Below the pieces are notes generated by a model. That model was not told the origin of the DNA. It did no database searches and was given only the letters and a program-made list of their open reading frames with translations. Shown here piece after piece: positions 3,220-63,124 of a stretch of DNA of 64,000 nt (positions are counted from its first letter, which is position 1; each line of letters opens with the position of its first letter). The stretch is from an uncultured Candidatus Saccharibacteria bacterium. Lineage in GTDB: Bacteria; Patescibacteriota; Minisyncoccia; Phycocordibacterales; Phycocordibacteraceae. The stretch spans positions 199,465 to 263,464 of the forward strand of contig CAYUQB010000001.1 in assembly GCA_964446735.1 (NCBI GenBank). Reading direction: 5' to 3'. A program made the position numbers and the translations under genes.

Positions 3220-4701
3220 ATGGCGTCGTCTCCCCGACCACCTATCGTGGCCGTCATGGGCCACATCGATCACGGGAAGTCCTCCCTGCTTGATTACATA
3301 CGCAAAAGCAATGTGACCGCTGGTGAAGCGGGTGGCATCACCCAGCACGTTTCTGCCTATGAAGCAGAGCATGAGCATGAAGGGGCGGTGCGCCGCATTA
3401 CGTTCCTCGACACCCCGGGCCATGAGGCGTTTCGAGCACTTCGAGCACGTGGTGCTGCAGTCGCCGATATTGCCATTCTCGTCATTGCCGCAGAAGAAGG
3501 CATTAAGCCACAGACTCTCGAAGCATTCAATGCAGCAAGTGAAGCGGGTACGCCAATCGTTGTTGCGTTTACGAAGATTGATAAGGCGGGTGCAGATGTG
3601 GAGCGTGCCAAAGTTTCAGCGCTTGAGCATGGCATCTATCTAGAAGGTCTTGGCGGCTCCATCGCATACACGGGTGTTTCCTCAAAATCAGGAGAAGGTG
3701 TTCCTGAGCTTCTTGACCTGGTACTGCTCACCGCTGACCTTGCGGAACTTACGGGAGATCCTCTCGCATCAGCAGAAGGATTTGTTCTTGAGTCTTCACA
3801 AGATCCGAAACAGGGACTCACCGCAACCCTCATCCTGAAGAACGGGACACTCGCAACTGGATCGTTTGTAGTTGCAGGAAGTGCGTACGCCCCGGTCCGC
3901 TTCATTGAAAACTTTGCAGGCAGTCGCATTCCTTCAGCCGGACCTTCCCAACCAGTACGCATTGCGGGGTGGAGTGAGCTTCCTTCCGCAGGCACACCGT
4001 TTACGGTTGTCGCAACGAAGAAGGACGCTGAGAAATTGGCGACCGAGGCGAATAAGTCAGTGCAGAAGCCGAACAGTGCCAGCATGACTGAAGATGGCAA
4101 AACGATGCTTCCGCTCATCGTAAAAGCTGATGTCTCTGGAAGTATCGAAGCGATCAAGCATGAGCTCGCAAAGATCGAGCATGAACGAGTCGCTATCCGC
4201 ATCATTTCAGAGGGCATCGGTGCGGTCTCCGAAGGAGATGTGAAGACCGCAGTCGCCGGAAATGGATTCATCATCGCGTTTAATGTCGGGACTGATGCAA
4301 CCGCACGTGATTTGGCGGAGCGTTCCGGTATCACGATTGATTCCTATACCATCATCTACGAGCTCAAGGAGCGCGTTGAGGAGTTGGTTACGCTTCGTGC
4401 TCCCAAGATCACGGTTGAAGAGACGCTCGGCGAGGCGAAGGTCCTCAAGACGTTCAATGCGTCTGGTGGTAAGGCGGTGTTGGGGGGTAAGTGGGTGTCG
4501 GGTCAGCTATCGGTAGGCGATCTGGTGAAGCTCGACCGCCGCGGGATTGATCTGGGGCGTGGCAGGATCACGAACATCCAGATGGCTCGTGCCGATGTGA
4601 AGGAACTGCATGTGGAAGGGGAATTCGGTATGCAGATTGAGACGAAAGCGGATATCGCGGGAGGCGACACCATCACAGCATTCCGCGTTATTGAAAATTA
4701 A
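3220..4701 (+). CDS. infB: Translation initiation factor IF-2 (minimal form, G-domain onward)
   Basis: MASSPRPPIVAVMGHIDHGKSSLLDYIRKS (G1), DTPGHEAF (G3) and TKIDK (G4) are present, followed by IF-2 C-domains. The track ORF begins at TTG 3199, and the first ATG is 3220. Confidence 0.85.
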   Translation: MASSPRPPIVAVMGHIDHGKSSLLDYIRKSNVTAGEAGGITQHVSAYEAEHEHEGAVRRITFLDTPGHEAFRALRARGAAVADIAILVIAAEEGIKPQTLEAFNAASEAGTPIVVAFTKIDKAGADVERAKVSALEHGIYLEGLGGSIAYTGVSSKSGEGVPELLDLVLLTADLAELTGDPLASAEGFVLESSQDPKQGLTATLILKNGTLATGSFVVAGSAYAPVRFIENFAGSRIPSAGPSQPVRIAGWSELPSAGTPFTVVATKKDAEKLATEANKSVQKPNSASMTEDGKTMLPLIVKADVSGSIEAIKHELAKIEHERVAIRIISEGIGAVSEGDVKTAVAGNGFIIAFNVGTDATARDLAERSGITIDSYTIIYELKERVEELVTLRAPKITVEETLGEAKVLKTFNASGGKAVLGGKWVSGQLSVGDLVKLDRRGIDLGRGRITNIQMARADVKELHVEGEFGMQIETKADIAGGDTITAFRVIEN

Positions 4702-4702
4702 C

Positions 4703-5026
4703 ATGAGTCTTCGCGACGAGAAGGCAGCATCTGAACTCCGCGATCTAGCCGGTGACTTTATCGCGCGTGAAGCAGGTCGTTCAACGCTGATCACCCCTAC
4801 CCGAGTCATGTATGGAAATGACCGCAAGCATGCAACGATCTATGTGTCCGTGTTCCCGATTGAACAGACCGAGCATGCACTTGCCTTTCTCGCACGCAAT
4901 GAACGGGAGTTCCGCGACTACCTCAAGAAGCATGGACGCTTCTCTGTTCTCCCGTTCGTGAAGTTCGTACAGGACTATGGCGAGCAAAATCGCCAACGGC
5001 TCGACGAACTTTCGAAGGACGTGTAG
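4703..5026 (+). CDS. rbfA: Ribosome-binding factor A
   Basis: About 107 aa. It starts 1 nt after the infB stop, which matches the conserved infB-rbfA linkage. The KH-like RbfA pattern (TLITPTRVMYGNDRKHATIYVS) is present. Confidence 0.7.
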   Translation: MSLRDEKAASELRDLAGDFIAREAGRSTLITPTRVMYGNDRKHATIYVSVFPIEQTEHALAFLARNEREFRDYLKKHGRFSVLPFVKFVQDYGEQNRQRLDELSKDV

Positions 5027-56585: not shown

Positions 56586-58568
56586 CTATGGAAGTACGGG
56601 AGCAGTAAGTTCCATATCAGGGCACGCAATGCGGTTGATCTTGTAGCTGGTCGTCTTATAGACGTAGCCAGTTGGGGTCTGTGCGGTCGGAAGACCGAAC
56701 GGTACCCACGGGAGAAGTACATCTTCCCAGTACTTGAGCTGGAAGGCGTTCACCGCGAGCGTCGTGACGGTGTCGAAGAGTCCAGAGGTCGAGAGGTTCG
56801 TATCCATCTCATCATTGAGGAATTCTTGGAGTACGGTTACCTGACCCGAATCGTTTACTTGGCTCTCACGCATCCAGCTAGTAATGAGAGGACAGGAGGC
56901 GCCGAGCACTTCTCCGCCGCTACTGCTGCGGGAGCCGCCTCCACCACCACCTCCACCTCCTCCGCCCCCACCTCCGCCAGAGCTGGCAATAGTGGGTTCG
57001 AAGTCGAAGATAGTGGTCATGGTGCTGGTAGCAGTACTCGTTCCGGTAGTGGTTCCAGTGATGTCATTCATGCGCGTAATGCGCAGGTCATCGATCGCTG
57101 CGGATACCGTCGTTGAGCCGTTAGGACTTTGGAGACCCACACCCAAGAGCGGGCTGGTAGTTCCCACCGTCAGATTTGGGAATGCCGTGAGGAGGTTCGT
57201 CCAGCTCCGGAACTGGTTGGTGTTCCCATCAGGCCATTGATTGCCCGAGGTCGCATAGTTCGACCAGGTCCACATGCTGCTTGAGGTTGCGAGCTGCCAG
57301 GTTTGCCAGGTGCCGGTGGCAACGGTTCCTGAATGTTGTGGCATGAAGACCAGCTGACCATTCACCGATCCATTGCCACTAAAGAGCGGAGCGAAGGCGA
57401 TGAACGGAGCGACTACGGAAGTAGTTGCAGTGGTCGTACCGGATACGGTTCCGAAGTCGGAGAGATACGTAGCGAAGGAGAGTTCACTCACGTCAGAGAG
57501 CTCGGTACCGCCGAACTGATAGGTAGCGATAGCGGAGGTGCCGGTCGTGGTTGCTGTAAGTGAGACACTTCCAGAGCCAAGCGGTGCGGTACCCGGACCG
57601 GTCACGAAGGTACCGACTGACGGATCGATGTTCTGCGTTACGCCGTTCCAGAAGAACCACTTATTGGTCGAGCTTGCCTCTGCAAGGGTTGTGGCAAGGT
57701 CTGCTTCACGCACGACAATGGTCTCGGTCACCGGTGTCGTGGTCCCGTTTCCGCCACCACCACCGCCTCCCCCACCTCCTCCATTGGTAGGTGGCATGTT
57801 GTCGGTGAGGCAGTACTCATTTACTACCAGCACATACTTATTCGTCGTGAGGTTAGTGAAGGAAGGAGCACTCACGGTGAGCGTTGCTGTCTCAGCTCCC
57901 GCGAGGGTATCACCCGCTCGATATCCTACGGTGCGATAGTGGCCGGCAACGCAGGCACTACCGTTTGCAATCACTGCATCGGTTGACGACGCTGCGGGCG
58001 CATTCACTTCATGTGCGGTGTAGGAAGCGCCCGAGGCCATAAGCGATGTGCTCACCTGTGCGGTACCGAGAGTGAAGGTGCCGGTTGTGGTCGTACCGCC
58101 ATTAAGATTGGCTGCGGTCCATGTTGCTTCCATGGGGAAGAAGCGGAACGTGGTGGTTGCATCCGCGAATGACTGAGTCGTCGATGCATCCTGAATGTAT
58201 TTGACGAGATGCACCTGCACGAATGCAGGTGTGGTGGTCCCCCCACCTCCCCCACCACCATTTGTCGGACAGGTTGTGGTTGCAGTTGGATTCGTGGTTG
58301 TGCCCGTGGGGAGGGTCGGACAGGTTGGCTCCGTCGGAGCAGTTGGTTCTGCTGGAGACGTGGGTGAGGTCGGTTCGGTGGGTGCAGTCGGAGCAGTTGG
58401 TTCCGTCGGAGGAGTCGGGCTAACAACGATTGGGGGCGTAGTCGTGCTCGTCTGTGCGATGACGGCCTGCGGCATGCCTGACGTTATGAACGTCAGTGCA
58501 AGCAGCGCCACAAAAACACTGCCCGCCCCCTGCAGCGTCTTCGGGCGCAATCTGATTTTCTTCAACAT
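56586..58568 (-). CDS. Large secreted low-complexity surface protein (Pro/Thr repeats, poly-Gly tracts)
   Basis: The signal peptide is followed by PTEPTAPTAPTEPTSPTSPAEPTAPTEPT repeats. There are several G7-G15 runs and T/S/G-rich β-rich regions. Confidence 0.55.
   Translation of the reverse strand: MLKKIRLRPKTLQGAGSVFVALLALTFITSGMPQAVIAQTSTTTPPIVVSPTPPTEPTAPTAPTEPTSPTSPAEPTAPTEPTCPTLPTGTTTNPTATTTCPTNGGGGGGGTTTPAFVQVHLVKYIQDASTTQSFADATTTFRFFPMEATWTAANLNGGTTTTGTFTLGTAQVSTSLMASGASYTAHEVNAPAASSTDAVIANGSACVAGHYRTVGYRAGDTLAGAETATLTVSAPSFTNLTTNKYVLVVNEYCLTDNMPPTNGGGGGGGGGGGNGTTTPVTETIVVREADLATTLAEASSTNKWFFWNGVTQNIDPSVGTFVTGPGTAPLGSGSVSLTATTTGTSAIATYQFGGTELSDVSELSFATYLSDFGTVSGTTTATTSVVAPFIAFAPLFSGNGSVNGQLVFMPQHSGTVATGTWQTWQLATSSSMWTWSNYATSGNQWPDGNTNQFRSWTNLLTAFPNLTVGTTSPLLGVGLQSPNGSTTVSAAIDDLRITRMNDITGTTTGTSTATSTMTTIFDFEPTIASSGGGGGGGGGGGGGGGSRSSSGGEVLGASCPLITSWMRESQVNDSGQVTVLQEFLNDEMDTNLSTSGLFDTVTTLAVNAFQLKYWEDVLLPWVPFGLPTAQTPTGYVYKTTSYKINRIACPDMELTAPVLP
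58313..58436 (-). repeat. Tandem imperfect PT(E/A/S)P-coding repeats inside the surface-protein gene
   Basis: gtcggagcagttggttc recurs at about 58333 and 58393. It encodes a PTxPT periodicity. Confidence 0.5.
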
Positions 58569-58728
58569 ACGTGTACTCGTTAAGAATGATCTGGTAATGC
58601 GCCGTCCGAGGACGAGCTACCCAGACCTTTCTGAATAGCACCGATGCGGTGATAAAAAGATGAAGCGTTCATACGAACTACGCGCCCGGTTGGACGCGTA
58701 GTTCGTGAGAGTGCTTTGTCGAGAAGTG

Positions 58729-58813
58729 CGGAGACGGCGAGATTCGAACTCGCGAGACCTTTCGGCCTACTCGCTTTCCAAGCGAGCGCACTAGACCACT
58801 ATGCGACGTCTCC
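58729..58813 (-). tRNA. tRNA-Ser (GGA), type II
   Basis: The reverse complement reads ggagacgtcgcatagtggtctagtgcgctcgcttGGAaagcgagtaggccgaaaggtctcgcgagttcgaatctcgccgtctccg. Confidence 0.75.
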
Positions 58814-58838: not shown

Positions 58839-59729
58839 CTACTTCCCGTCCGGCGTAAGAAGTTGCTTGATGCGATCGGCAGTAGGTGGGTGGGTAGCAA
58901 ACATACGATTAAGCCAATTCCCCTTCTGCTCGCCAAACGGGTTTTCTATAAACAAGTGGGCGGTTGCGTGATTCGCGCGCGCAAGTGGCCGACGGTCAGC
59001 ATCGATCTTGGCGAGCGCGGAGGCAAGGCCCTCTGGATATCGAGTAAGCAGCGCGCCTGAGGCATCAGCAAGATATTCACGCCTCCGAGAGATCGCAAGC
59101 TGGATGAGCTGTGCCGCAATCGGCGCAAGGATGATGCCGATGATCGCAAGGATCATAAAGAGTGCGGATCCCTTGCTGTCACGATCCCCTCCTCCGAACA
59201 TCGACATGCGCAGGAAGATATCGGCGATGATCGCGATGAATCCAGCGAGCACCACCGCGACGGTCATAAGAAGGATGTCCTTGTTCTTGATATGCGAGAG
59301 TTCATGCGCAATCACGCCTTCAAGTTCCGCACGATTGAGCATCGAAAGAAGCCCGGTAGTGGCTGCGACCACCGAGTGCTTCTCGTTACGCCCAGTCGCG
59401 AATGCGTTCGGTGCGGGATCCTCGATGACGTAGAGCTTTGGCATGGGCATGCCTGCGGTGATGGTGAGATTTTCGGTGACGGTATAGAAGTCAAAGAATT
59501 CCTCACGCGTTGCAAGGCGTGCACCGGTCATCGAAAGTACCTGCTTGTCGGAGAACCAGTAGCTGTACACATTCATCAAGAGCGCGAAGATAATCGCACC
59601 ATAGAGAATGGTGGGGCTCTGGTAGTACCAGGCTACGGCATAACCAATGCCGATCACTATGGCCAGGAAGGCCGCCATAAGAAAAGCGGTCTTCCACATA
59701 TTTGCACTGCGTTCTTGGTAGAGCGTCAT
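58839..59729 (-). CDS. htpX: Zinc metalloprotease HtpX (M48)
   Basis: HELSHIKNKD carries the HExxH motif. N-terminal TM helices and a downstream EYxAD-like motif are present. Confidence 0.85.
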   Translation of the reverse strand: MTLYQERSANMWKTAFLMAAFLAIVIGIGYAVAWYYQSPTILYGAIIFALLMNVYSYWFSDKQVLSMTGARLATREEFFDFYTVTENLTITAGMPMPKLYVIEDPAPNAFATGRNEKHSVVAATTGLLSMLNRAELEGVIAHELSHIKNKDILLMTVAVVLAGFIAIIADIFLRMSMFGGGDRDSKGSALFMILAIIGIILAPIAAQLIQLAISRRREYLADASGALLTRYPEGLASALAKIDADRRPLARANHATAHLFIENPFGEQKGNWLNRMFATHPPTADRIKQLLTPDGK

Positions 59730-59770: not shown

Positions 59771-60331
59771 CTAGAATGACACCTTCACAGGTTCGCGAGC
59801 GGCTTCTTCACCAGCACCGAGCTGGAAGAGTTCCATCTCCTTGAAGTTGAACATGCCAGCAACGATGTTGCCCGGGAACGACTGGACCGAGGTGTTGAGG
59901 TCCTGGACGTTTGAGTTATAGAAGCGGCGAGCAGCCTGGATCTTGTCTTCTGTATCACCAAGCTCTTGCTGAAGCTGAAGGAAGTTCTGATTCGCTTTTA
60001 GATCCGGATAGGCTTCAGAAACGGCGAAGATGGACTTGAGCGCATCGGTGAGCATGTTCTCAGCTTTTGCGTGCTCCCCTACCGTCTGTGCACCCATGGC
60101 AGCAGCACGCGCCTTGGTGACGTTCTCAAATGCGGCAGCTTCATGTGCAGCATATCCTTTCACCGTATCAACCAGGTTGGGAATGAGATCGTAGCGACGC
60201 TTCAACTGTACGTCGATATCGGCCCACGCTTCTTTAGTGCGATTCACTTTGGAGACGAATCCGTTGAACGCGAAGATTGCCCAAAGGACAACGACCGCAA
60301 CAACAGCAAGAATGATATAGAGGATAGTCAT
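59771..60331 (-). CDS. lemA: LemA family protein
   Basis: The N-terminal TM helix is followed by the LemA core (FNGFVSKVNRTKEAWADIDVQLKRRYDLIPNLV). It pairs with htpX downstream. Confidence 0.8.
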   Translation of the reverse strand: MTILYIILAVVAVVVLWAIFAFNGFVSKVNRTKEAWADIDVQLKRRYDLIPNLVDTVKGYAAHEAAAFENVTKARAAAMGAQTVGEHAKAENMLTDALKSIFAVSEAYPDLKANQNFLQLQQELGDTEDKIQAARRFYNSNVQDLNTSVQSFPGNIVAGMFNFKEMELFQLGAGEEAAREPVKVSF

Positions 60332-60442
60332 GATTGAGATTAGCTTATGTTTCCATTATAGCGGGTTGCCAGAGACGCACAAGCGTTGTAGAACGAATGC
60401 AGGACGAAGAACTGACTCTTCGTTGCATACCGGGGGTACACC

Positions 60443-60559
60443 ATGCCCGTCTTGAGATTGCCGCGCCTGATGCGCATCTTCCTGGCAAGCCCTCTCGCGC
60501 TTGCCGGCGCCTACTTCTACGGGGCGTTCGATACCGTGCGAGAGTTCGTGACCGGATAG
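60443..60559 (+). CDS. Small peptide 1 (38 aa) of the GC-rich four-ORF cluster
   Basis: GGGGG lies 6 nt upstream of ATG. The sequence is MPVLRLPRLMRIFLASPLALAGAYFYGAFDTVREFVTG. Confidence 0.35.
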   Translation: MPVLRLPRLMRIFLASPLALAGAYFYGAFDTVREFVTG

Positions 60560-60567
60560 GAGGTGCC

Positions 60568-60687
60568 ATGGAGATCCTAAAATACCTCGCGCCAGCCGTT
60601 GGTCTGGTCGCCGTCATCGCCGTGTACGTGTGGTCGCAGGGCGGTCCTCGGACGTACTGGAGGAACATTACCTCCGGCACGCTTCGG
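60568..60687 (+). CDS. Small membrane peptide 2 (39 aa)
   Basis: AGGAGG lies 5 nt upstream of ATG. The sequence is MEILKYLAPAVGLVAVIAVYVWSQGGPRTYWRNITSGTLRDDT. Confidence 0.45.
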
Positions 60688-60710
60688 GACGACACCTAAA
60701 GGAGTGCGCG

Positions 60711-60860
60711 ATGGAAGAGTGGCTTGATTCCGTCCGTCCTGTGCTCCCTATCCTGCTTCCCTACGGAATAGCGCTGGGCGTCATGTTCTTCTGTGCGCTT
60801 GCTTCATCAAGCGGCGACACCGAACAACCGTTCTTCACTCCCGTCGACGACGATGAGTGA
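60711..60860 (+). CDS. Small membrane peptide 3 (49 aa)
   Basis: AAAGGAG lies 7 nt upstream of ATG. The sequence is MEEWLDSVRPVLPILLPYGIALGVMFFCALASSSGDTEQPFFTPVDDDE. Confidence 0.45.
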   Translation: MEEWLDSVRPVLPILLPYGIALGVMFFCALASSSGDTEQPFFTPVDDDE

Positions 60861-60973
60861 CAACGAAGGGCCGTGCGTCCCCTGTGGGACTCACGGCCTC
60901 GTCGTTTTACTATCCACTTCGACTTTAGGAGCATTGAGTTGAGCACGTATAGTGATCAGTAGGAGGACTCCAC

Positions 60974-61096
60974 ATGGGTATCCTAATCATCTACACCCCG
61001 GACTTTTGCGTCCGGATGGGTTTCGGCTTCTGGGAAGCCTGCTACCGCGACTGGCTGCGTCTGTGCGGCGCCACGCTGCCCCCAACGCAGTCCTAG
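60974..61096 (+). CDS. Small Cys-containing peptide 4 (40 aa)
   Basis: AGGAGG lies 6 nt upstream of ATG. The sequence is MGILIIYTPDFCVRMGFGFWEACYRDWLRLCGATLPPTQS. Confidence 0.4.
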   Translation: MGILIIYTPDFCVRMGFGFWEACYRDWLRLCGATLPPTQS

Positions 61097-61119
61097 CAGG
61101 AACGTCCCACTACCGACAC

Positions 61120-61160
61120 GAAAACGCGCCGCCGGCCTCACAGCCAGCGGCGCATTTCGT
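61120..61160. terminator. Bidirectional terminator hairpin downstream of groEL
   Basis: gcgccgc-cggcctcacagcca-gcggcgc, flanked by A/T runs (gaaaa on the plus strand and ttttc on the minus strand). Confidence 0.5.
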
Positions 61161-61169
61161 GATGAGAGG

Positions 61170-63124
<1,955 letters not shown>

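Follow-up and report, generated by a model that had tools for sequence, protein, structure and literature searches.

The groEL-lemA spacer and its four small ORFs

In the 64-kb window (the whole stretch of DNA analysed), which comes from an uncultured member of the Patescibacteria (CPR), groEL and lemA are separated by a spacer of 838 nt, which is filled by four small plus-strand ATG ORFs (Table 1). The first-pass annotation had reported four small co-directional ORFs between lemA and groEL, and our recheck confirmed both the ORFs and their flanks: the two neighboring genes lie on the minus strand, the product of lemA matches PF04011, and groEL is 75-84% identical to the genes annotated as Cpn60 in relatives. 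The coordinates first given for ORF1, ORF3, and ORF4 were correct, but ORF2 ends at 60699 (43 aa) and not at 60687. The spacer had also been called GC-rich, which is right in direction but overstated in size, as the difference is modest (~60% versus ~55% in the flanks). Two independent gene callers predict small ORFs here: all four appear in the Logan assembly annotation, and ORF2-4, but not ORF1, in the NCBI record.

The genes found within ~14 kb are those for LepA, MurJ, a TPR protein, DUF192, tRNA-Ser, HtpX, LemA, GroEL/ES, and SecG. No modification enzyme, ABC/C39 exporter, or known immunity gene lies within ~14 kb of the small ORFs, which extends the earlier remark that no modification enzyme is adjacent. 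No flanking direct or inverted repeats were found at the spacer, and neither an integrase nor a tRNA at its borders. An Rfam E-value scan gave nothing in the spacer, its sole match being a tRNA elsewhere.

Table 1. Genes, small ORFs, and candidate expression signals at the groEL-lemA locus (window coordinates)
Feature	Position	Strand	Description
htpX	58839-59729		Downstream of lemA; PF01435 Peptidase_M48
lemA	59771-60331	minus	PF04011 LemA; divergent from the small ORFs
lemA promoter block	60355-60388	minus	CAACGCTTGTGC-N6-TGGCAAC-N4-TATAAT; clade-conserved; conserved boundary of the variable slot
Modest hairpin	60397-60428	plus	Putative ORF1 5' leader; dG -13.8, z -1.7 (plus), z -2.6 (minus); weak
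G-run upstream of ORF1	60432-60436	plus	GGGGG; not a canonical SD
ORF1	60443-60559	plus	38 aa, MPVLRLPRLMRIFLASPLALAGAYFYGAFDTVREFVTG; Arg-rich N-terminus, then hydrophobic helix
ORF2 SD	60558-60564	plus	AGGAGGT; 3-4 nt before ATG; overlaps ORF1 stop codon
ORF2	60568-60699	plus	43 aa, MEILKYLAPAVGLVAVIAVYVWSQGGPRTYWRNITSGTLRDDT; predicted single TM segment and polar C-terminal tail
ORF3 SD	60698-60704	plus	AAAGGAG; 6 nt before ATG; overlaps ORF2 stop codon
ORF3	60711-60860	plus	49 aa, MEEWLDSVRPVLPILLPYGIALGVMFFCALASSSGDTEQPFFTPVDDDE; predicted single TM segment and strongly acidic tail
Intrinsic-terminator-like hairpin	60862-60906	plus	Followed by UCGUCGUUUUA; dG -29.5 kcal/mol, z -4.7; proposed end of ORF1-3
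-10-like box	60948-60953	plus	TATAGT; 20 nt upstream of ORF4 ATG; candidate ORF4 promoter
ORF4 SD	60961-60966	plus	AGGAGG; 7 nt before ATG
ORF4	60974-61096	plus	40 aa, MGILIIYTPDFCVRMGFGFWEACYRDWLRLCGATLPPTQS; Cys/Trp/Phe-rich, without clear TM segment
Bidirectional terminator hairpin	61117-61161	both	Common to ORF4 (plus) and groEL (minus)
groEL	61170-62813	minus	Convergent with the small ORFs; 75-84% identical to Cpn60-annotated genes of relatives
groES	62819-63124		Beside groEL

Start signals and proposed transcription units

Each ORF had been described as led by an SD at 5-7 nt. This holds for ORF3 (6 nt) and ORF4 (7 nt); the SD of ORF2 sits closer, at 3-4 nt, and ORF1 has the G-run only. 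The SDs of ORF2-4, 6-7 nt long and spaced 3-7 nt from the start, are unusual in this genome, where an SD of at least 5 nt was found in just 4 of 33 long genes. When all gaps in the 64-kb window are considered, an SD and a positive codon score occur together only in ORF2, ORF3, and one doubtful ORF.

Strong hairpins are placed exactly after ORF3 and after ORF4. The proposal of an operon-like cluster of four could be kept in part: ORF1-3 form a tight unit that ends at the 60862-60906 hairpin, but ORF4 is separate, having its own TATAGT box and ending at the bidirectional groEL terminator (dG -29.1 for the plus and -37.4 for the minus strand, z about -6). The first unit would thus be a tricistronic ORF1-ORF2-ORF3 operon whose transcription stops at the hairpin behind ORF3. 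Because the gaps between its cistrons are 8 nt (ORF1-ORF2) and 11 nt (ORF2-ORF3), with the SDs overlapping the stop codons, ribosomes ending one cistron may re-initiate at the next. The second unit would be monocistronic ORF4, running from the TATAGT box to the groEL terminator. No good -35 element was found for this box; hexamers of the TATAGT type also occur upstream of apparently leaderless genes in the 64-kb window.

The stretch upstream of 60440, where a promoter had been thought worth looking for, yielded none that was convincing. An automated scan found no promoter upstream of ORF1, and in the best candidate found by hand, TTGCCA-17-TAGAAC (60366-60394), the -10 box does not have its invariant final T. 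On the minus strand, consensus scans, which a weak promoter could escape, found no promoter-like site within 60443-61100. The lemA promoter block carries a perfect TATAAT at 60360-60355; in a lemA-upstream alignment and motif scan, the window and the relatives L087, L091, L094, and L097-L101 showed the block here and nowhere else.

Chance expectation and coding signal

The arrangement was compared with dinucleotide-preserving shuffles of the spacer (n = 3000). A chain of four co-directional, non-overlapping ATG ORFs of at least 38 aa arose in 0.7% of the shuffles (P = 0.007). Two ORFs with an SD of at least 6 nt were seen in 0.1%, and three such ORFs in 0/3000.

Codon log-likelihood was 0.19 per codon for ORF1, 0.23 for ORF2, and 0.21 for ORF3, in each case the best of the six frames. 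Real 40-codon chunks scored 0.31 ± 0.17 and null small ORFs -0.26 ± 0.24, and only 1-2% of the null small ORFs reached the values of ORF1-3 (0.19-0.23). These frame-specific biases, together with SDs that are rare elsewhere in the genome, bear out the earlier view of the ORFs as gene-like. ORF4 is the least certain of the four: its score of 0.016 per codon, matched or bettered by 13% of null ORFs, is indistinguishable from noise. GC3 of ORF1 (0.82), ORF2, and ORF4 lies at 0.79-0.82, well above the genome mean of 0.60, which is consistent with a foreign origin, yet also makes their composition atypical.

Look-ups of strain variants by exact GroEL, HtpX, ORF2, and ORF4 yielded contigs L001-L003 and no others (L004 and L085 duplicate contigs of this set in the opposite orientation). 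One variant, L002, shows 23 differences over 1148 nt, two of which fall in the covered part of the spacer. Both (60490 C>T in ORF1 and 60767 A>G in ORF3) are third-position changes that are synonymous in the predicted frames. The signal of purifying selection consists of these two substitutions in one strain-level variant (P about 0.05).

Predicted properties of the peptides

The best 19-residue Kyte-Doolittle means are 1.27 for ORF1, 2.11 for ORF2, 2.15 for ORF3, and 1.23 for ORF4. The prediction is accordingly a clear single TM segment for ORF2 and for ORF3, a borderline case for ORF1, and no TM segment for ORF4. Three single-TM peptides had been counted at first, with small membrane regulators among their suggested roles; the count stands for ORF2 and ORF3, to which the term "small membrane proteins" is well suited, but not for borderline ORF1, nor does ORF4 qualify. 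The AlphaFold model of ORF1 is one helix spanning residues 5-37 (pLDDT 89), and the predicted structure of ORF4 has two helices (pLDDT 74). Net charges are +2, +1, -8, and 0 for ORF1 to ORF4, respectively. There are no paralogues among the four peptides, nor elsewhere in the 64-kb window.

Homology searches

When 1.84 billion cluster representatives were searched exhaustively with HMMER, the only matches were the four peptides themselves and one spurious repeat protein. The latter (P0005, E = 3e-4) is repetitive and spans the artificial ORF3/ORF4 junction of the query, and was rejected. None of the four peptides matched a family in Pfam, NCBIfam, PHROGs, or PADLOC, and viral contigs and phage and plasmid collections held no similarity to the cluster. 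A cassette derived from a phage or another mobile element was rejected on these grounds, given also that no repeats flank the spacer.

The loci of relatives contained no homologues of the peptides: tblastx against 90 related loci gave no significant match, and at the DNA level the spacer resembled none of the related loci. ORF2 and a 39-aa ORF in the slot of L023 share a W-RNI-S/T-S tail (Smith-Waterman z = 4.7), but the resemblance was dismissed as noise (E = 28) in a phmmer check that covered all 19,878 six-frame ORFs of the related loci. At the level of sequence, all four ORFs are orphans, with no relatives in the databases searched. As no search gave a homologue, the cluster lacks conservation, by which small genes are usually proven. 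The conservation test proposed at the outset gave a divided answer: the peptides are conserved in no relative, because the whole spacer content is replaced, and both spacer changes in L002 are synonymous.

A variable slot in relatives

A LemA-based DNA pattern, together with exact look-ups of LemA's closest homologues, gave access to closer relatives. The relatives keep the groES-groEL-lemA-htpX order, and their groEL-lemA spacers range from 13 to 1559 nt, the 13-nt form being probably ancestral. Where the spacer is long, it often contains different small membrane ORFs, which are non-homologous and lie on the opposite strand. The first SD with a start codon on that strand (ATG, or GTG in one relative) lies 101-128 nt from the lemA ATG in ten relatives, compared with 111 nt in the window, and the products are unrelated. 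A 43-aa TM ORF in the slot of L102/L103 has the codon bias of a real gene (0.42 per codon) and shows 0 differences between the two samples, versus 5 in its 112-nt leader. Slot content is replaced even between relatives that have diverged only 13-17% in LemA. This hypervariability among relatives suggests that the cluster arose recently, whether inserted, substituted for earlier content, or born de novo, and was not inherited.

Interpretation and rival explanations

Gene-like anatomy, codon bias, TM-like segments, and absence of homologues, all observed or computed directly, are in our judgment probably best explained by a spacer that holds lineage-specific orphan genes for small membrane proteins, arranged in two transcription units within a hypervariable slot; their function we infer. 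At least three of the four ORFs have the look of genuine genes, with products that are short, helical, and probably inserted in the membrane. ORF2 and ORF3, and probably also ORF1, would sit in the cytoplasmic membrane as single helices and, by analogy with characterized small membrane proteins, may exert their effect by attaching to larger membrane proteins. LemA and HtpX stand out as candidate partners by adjacency only: their genes are transcribed in the divergent direction, with a start just 111 nt away. HtpX is thought to be poor at handling small membrane proteins with short cytoplasmic parts (PMC10470546).

Membrane proteins are predicted to make up about a third of the small proteins known (PMC10470546), and those of at most about 50 aa include AcrZ, MgtS, MgrB, KdpF, and CydX (references in PMC10470546; PMC10730256). 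The cluster resembles such proteins in the length of its products (38-49 aa), in their own ribosome-binding sites (for ORF1, the G-run only), in the predicted single hydrophobic helix of ORF2 and ORF3, and in being often missed by annotation. It differs in that its peptides have no sequence relationship to any of them, and in that three of the ORFs form a predicted translationally coupled trio.

A different and rather unlikely account is that the ORFs are young proto-genes or incidental: inserted DNA would be transcribed and perhaps translated, giving peptides without a selected function, as transient products of a fast-turnover intergenic slot in which short hydrophobic ORFs arise easily. Irrespective of this account, the slot recalls two concepts of comparative genomics, variable islets that lie between conserved core genes and small transmembrane ORFs that arise de novo. 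As in such islets, the flanks are conserved (the groEL terminator and the lemA promoter block) and the content is replaced between close relatives; as with de novo ORFs, much of the slot content consists of short hydrophobic ORFs without homologues. The slot differs from other variable islets in being only 0.1-1.5 kb long, in lying in a streamlined CPR genome, and in having no integrase, repeats, or tRNA at its borders. The complete lack of homologues, the turnover of slot content at 13-17% LemA divergence, the missing codon signal of ORF4, and a relative that has in the same place a mere 4-codon ORF (MFLV) behind a strong SD are all in line with proto-genes. However, three strong SDs in an SD-poor genome, the stop-SD overlaps, and the precise terminators argue for selection on expression, the codon usage of ORF1-3 is already gene-like, and both strain-level changes are synonymous.

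Less likely still is a more ambitious reading of the same slot, in which a Paceibacteria-like clade would maintain a dedicated groEL-lemA slot, fixed in position and hypervariable in sequence, that makes fast-turning-over small membrane peptides. The peptides would be expressed divergently from the lemA-htpX membrane-quality-control operon. Selection might reward novelty, for instance in host-cell interaction or phage exclusion at the membrane; alternatively, the peptides might be modulators or baits of LemA/HtpX. The four-ORF cluster of the window would then be the most expanded example seen so far.

That the ORFs occur by chance, the region being a terminator, promoter, regulatory DNA, or an unknown RNA, we regard as improbable. 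The failure to find a promoter for ORF1-3, the lack of conservation in relatives, and the ambiguity of ORF4 would fit non-coding DNA, but the shuffles (P = 0.007 for four ORFs, 0/3000 for three SDs) and the frame-specific codon bias of ORF1-3 speak against it. The Rfam scan had no match in the region, and 838 nt is long for a compact genome when spacers of just 13-130 nt suffice in some relatives.

Toxin-like peptides had been among the roles first suggested. In a type I toxin-antitoxin-like system, one or more hydrophobic peptides would depolarize the membrane and be held in check by an antisense RNA. Known type I toxins (Hok/Gef, Ldr, TisB, Fst, TxpA, BsrG) are likewise short, with a single hydrophobic helix, a polar or charged tail, and a variable location; ORF2 and ORF3 have the right size and shape, with a predicted single TM segment and a charged tail, and type I modules tend to accumulate in islets such as the one in which the cluster sits. 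Unlike these toxins, the cluster is polycistronic, with three predicted translationally coupled cistrons, which is atypical. Its minus strand contained no promoter-like site for an antisense RNA in the scans, and no match of the Hok/Ldr/Fst/TxpA type was found in Pfam or NCBIfam, nor any match in PADLOC. We therefore give this role little credence.

The suggestion of bacteriocin-like or RiPP precursors fared worse, and a cluster of secreted peptides now seems highly improbable. On this view, for example, ORF1 would function as a signal peptide of the Sec type (Arg-rich N-terminus, hydrophobic core, ALA-G) from which a peptide of ~17 aa is released, and ORF2 and ORF3 would be small membrane helpers in immunity or export. 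By eye, the N-terminus of ORF1 does resemble a signal peptide, and several co-directional peptides of 30-50 aa without a leader recall leaderless bacteriocin operons such as aureocin A70, which encodes four peptides. In contrast to those operons, no transporter or immunity genes are nearby, and within ~14 kb there is no modification enzyme or ABC/C39 exporter either; the peptides have no family match (Pfam, NCBIfam, PHROGs, PADLOC), are not cationic (ORF3 has a net charge of -8), and are not mutual paralogues.

A frameshifted remnant of a larger decayed gene has next to no probability: some relatives do have 190-350-aa genes in the same spacer, but the concatenated query found no longer homologue among the 1.84 billion representatives, tblastx against all relatives' loci gave nothing significant, and each fragment has its own SD and an ATG right after the preceding stop.

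Biological significance

Under-annotation of small membrane proteins is general, and in CPR/Patescibacteria, where genomes are tiny and have little room for useless DNA, these proteins have hardly been studied at all. The cluster supplies three to four well-formed orphan small genes that are open to testing, and its practical value is at present modest, lying in an improved annotation and a defined candidate set. The slot adjoins conserved proteostasis genes, and close relatives hold different small hydrophobic genes there. Should this pattern be functional, these epibiotic bacteria would seem to have a fast-evolving layer of membrane peptides; if it is not, the slot would offer a clean natural case of gene turnover or de novo gene birth in a streamlined genome.

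Four small ORFs between groEL and lemA

The spacer between groEL and lemA carries four small plus-strand ORFs that begin with ATG (ORF1–ORF4; table), as the first-pass annotation had reported, and the observation is real with minor corrections: ORF2 ends at 60699 rather than 60687, and a Shine-Dalgarno motif (SD) precedes ORF2, ORF3 and ORF4, with only GGGGG ahead of ORF1. The stop codons of ORF1 and ORF2 each overlap the SD of the next ORF (AGGAGGT for ORF2, AAAGGAG for ORF3), and the gaps from stop to next start are 8 nt (ORF1 to ORF2) and 11 nt (ORF2 to ORF3). Such close packing points to translational coupling within the trio. The SD of ORF4 is AGGAGG, 7 nt upstream. All four ORFs are predicted in the Logan annotation and ORF2–4 by NCBI; the identical peptides are encoded on three short Logan assembly contigs and in one NCBI record (a 516,752-bp contig).

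Features of the groEL–lemA region, and ORFs in the same spacer (slot) of related loci (L numbers)
Feature	Coordinates	Strand	Remarks
tRNA-Ser	58728-58813	minus	anticodon GGA; directly downstream of htpX; sole match of the Rfam scan
htpX	58839-59729	minus	co-directional with lemA, downstream of it
lemA	59771-60331	minus	one flank of spacer
Spacer	60332-61169		838 nt
lemA promoter block	60355-60388	minus	CAACGCTTGTRC-N6-TGGCAAC-N3-4-TATAMT, upstream of lemA
Additional hairpin	60397-60428		ACGAAGA...UCUUCGU; between lemA promoter block and ORF1; stability just above that of shuffles (z -1.7 plus strand, -2.6 minus strand)
ORF1	60443-60559	plus	ATG, 38 aa
ORF2	60568-60699	plus	ATG, 43 aa
ORF3	60711-60860	plus	ATG, 49 aa
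Hairpin 1	60862-60906	plus	directly after ORF3; dG -29.5 kcal/mol, z -4.7; then short U run
TATAGT box	60948-60953		between the two hairpins, 20 nt before ORF4 ATG
ORF4	60974-61096	plus	ATG, 40 aa
Hairpin 2	61117-61161	both	after ORF4; dG -29.1 plus, -37.4 minus; z ~-6; doubles as groEL terminator
groEL	61170-62813	minus	other flank of spacer
groES	62819-63124		precedes groEL
660-aa ORF	56586-58568	minus	very Thr-, Gly-, Pro-rich; long poly-Gly runs, PT repeats; signal-like N-terminal segment; no Pfam match; probably a lineage-specific surface protein
L102/L103 slot ORF	L102 3757-3888	minus	43-aa TM peptide
L023 slot ORFs	4517-4804	minus, opposite to lemA	43+39 aa
L095 slot ORF	1686-2087 (oriented)	opposite to lemA	133 aa, multi-TM
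L091 slot ORF		opposite to lemA	~64 aa
L090 slot ORF		opposite to lemA	29 aa
L092 slot ORF		opposite to lemA	25 aa
L012 slot ORF		opposite to lemA	33 aa
L022 slot ORF		opposite to lemA	84 aa
L072 slot ORF		opposite to lemA	142 aa

Coding signal and strain variation

That these are chance ORFs in a purely non-coding spacer is unlikely, because both shuffle and codon tests speak against it. In dinucleotide shuffles of the spacer, sets of four ATG ORFs, co-directional, non-overlapping and each ≥38 aa long, arose in 0.7% of trials, and three ORFs that each had an SD of ≥6 nt in 0 of 3000. SDs are rare in this genome (of 33 confident long genes of the window, just 4 have a match of ≥5 nt), so those of the cluster are more telling. 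Across all gaps of the 64-kb window, a scan in which ORF4 was masked by a spurious antisense ORF, an SD coincided with a positive codon score only in ORF2, ORF3 and one doubtful ORF.

A codon log-likelihood model trained on 33 long ORFs of the window gave 0.19, 0.23 and 0.21 per codon for ORF1, ORF2 and ORF3, each the best of six frames, against 0.31 ± 0.17 for 40-codon pieces of real genes and -0.26 ± 0.24 for wrong-frame small ORFs within them; only 1–2% of the wrong-frame null attain such scores. By the same score (0.016, equalled or bettered by 13% of null ORFs) the coding status of ORF4 is ambiguous. GC3 is 0.82, 0.79, 0.63 and 0.82 for ORF1 to ORF4 (genome mean 0.60) and spacer GC 60% versus ~55% in the flanks, values compatible with a foreign origin; a search at the spacer borders found no flanking repeats.

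A strain variant of the locus (L002), covering ~475 nt of the spacer, differs at 23 of 1148 positions: 17 in lemA (all synonymous) and two each in htpX, the htpX–lemA gap and the spacer. The spacer changes, 60490 C>T (ORF1, Ser) and 60767 A>G (ORF3, Gly), fall at third codon positions, a pattern that points weakly toward coding (~P = 0.05, two changes only).

Transcription signals

Since hairpins follow ORF3 and ORF4 with a TATAGT box between them, the cluster is best read as two units, ORF1–3 and ORF4, and the single four-gene operon proposed initially is not borne out. Neither a consensus scan nor manual search found a convincing promoter upstream of ORF1, the best manual candidate (TTGCCA-17-TAGAAC, 60366-60394) having a poor -10 box; here the gene model has its chief gap. 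Within the cluster, the minus strand shows no promoter-like site.

The lemA promoter block recurs in L087, L091, L094 and L097–L101, i.e. in the close clade only, and contains a near-direct repeat (GTTGCCAAAAC...GTTGCAAAAC, opposite strand). Because its conservation exceeds the needs of a plain -35/-10 promoter, it may serve to bind a regulator of lemA–htpX.

Many long genes of the window have a TAnnnT box (TATAGT, TAGTAT, TATACT, TATGAT or similar) 5–9 nt before the ATG, as at 2752(-), 39546(-), 42573(+), 44753(+), 32176(+) and 24921(-), which suggests that leaderless mRNAs are widespread in this CPR genome and that SDs stand mainly at operon-internal genes.

The spacer in relatives

Many Patescibacteria share the co-directional order groES–groEL–lemA–htpX, with groEL–lemA spacers that start at 13, 37 or 38 nt and reach 1559 nt. 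About a dozen relatives have gene-free short spacers (≤130 nt), among them L089 and L097 (80–88% LemA identity over the aligned region); the short spacer is probably ancestral and the 838 nt of the window a lineage-specific gain. The best LemA relatives come from MAGs labelled Kaiserbacteria, Paceibacterota, Saccharibacteria or Patescibacteria, which places the organism among the uncultured CPR bacteria. The closest LemA proteins among 5.8 billion clusters are only 83–87% identical. Conservation of the peptides in relatives, the check proposed at first pass, failed to appear: the loci of the closest LemA relatives hold nothing similar to any of the four.

In many long spacers, the strand that does not encode lemA carries different small hydrophobic ORFs (table), and other relatives have unrelated larger genes there (190–380 aa, either orientation), so that slot contents in the L005–L103 range comprise none, unrelated tiny TM ORFs or larger genes. 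The first opposite-strand SD with a start codon (ATG, GTG in one) lies 101–128 nt from the lemA ATG in ten relatives and 111 nt in the window, just past the clade-conserved promoter block. The L102 peptide scores 0.42 per codon, full gene-level bias, and two samples show 0 changes in its 132-nt ORF versus five in the 112-nt leader. From these unrelated contents and the codon bias and constancy of the L102 ORF, it follows that the slot turns over by replacement, not divergence, and that its small ORFs resemble genes in more than one lineage; across Patescibacteria (13 nt to 1559 nt) it is a gene-turnover hot spot.

In the slot of L100/L101, a strong SD (AAGGGAGG) precedes a 4-codon ORF (MFLV-stop) on the opposite strand, 75 nt from the lemA ATG; this ORF may be what decay has left of the divergent small gene, or a minimal form of it. 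Relatives also carry other genes where the window has the 660-aa ORF, between htpX and the DUF192 gene.

Predicted peptides and possible roles

An exhaustive HMMER search with the four peptides concatenated, against one representative per 50% cluster of ~15 billion proteins, returned only the peptides themselves and one repeat protein, rejected as spurious since its alignment spans the artificial junction of the query. A longer homologue would align piecewise in such a search; none appeared, which speaks against a remnant of a decayed larger gene. No credible match came from Pfam, NCBIfam, PHROGs or PADLOC, searches of viral contigs and of phage and plasmid records were empty, and the window contains no paralogues.

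Three single-TM peptides had been predicted. ORF2 and ORF3 have strongly hydrophobic stretches (best 19-residue Kyte-Doolittle mean 2.11 and 2.15); the tail behind the stretch is polar in ORF2 and very acidic in ORF3 (net charge -8). Both ORFs would encode single-pass membrane peptides; ORF1, with an Arg-rich N-terminus, is borderline (1.27), and ORF4 is not TM-like (1.23). AlphaFold gave a single helix for ORF1 (residues 5-37, pLDDT 89), and the ORF4 model has two short helices (pLDDT 74); as single-sequence models, both show helical propensity only.

On the best-supported reading, ORF1–3 are real orphan genes for small proteins, acquired recently, as is ORF4 with less certainty; that they are young, possibly functionless proto-genes is a serious alternative. 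Of the readings first suggested, that of small membrane proteins stands. A bacteriocin/RiPP precursor cluster finds no support: within ~14 kb the ORFs have only housekeeping genes around them (LepA, MurJ, TPR protein, DUF192, SecG), and the peptides are mutually dissimilar and not cationic. Nor do anatomy and family membership support a type I toxin, although the peptides may still be toxic.

The peptides would bind and modulate larger membrane proteins, as small membrane proteins that have been characterised do (PMC10470546, PMC10730256), LemA and HtpX being candidate partners from adjacency alone; HtpX is probably poor at handling small membrane proteins with short cytoplasmic parts (PMC10470546). 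With the cluster, a known kind, small membrane proteins, gains new orphan families, and the hypervariable slot beside lemA–htpX is the more interesting by-product.
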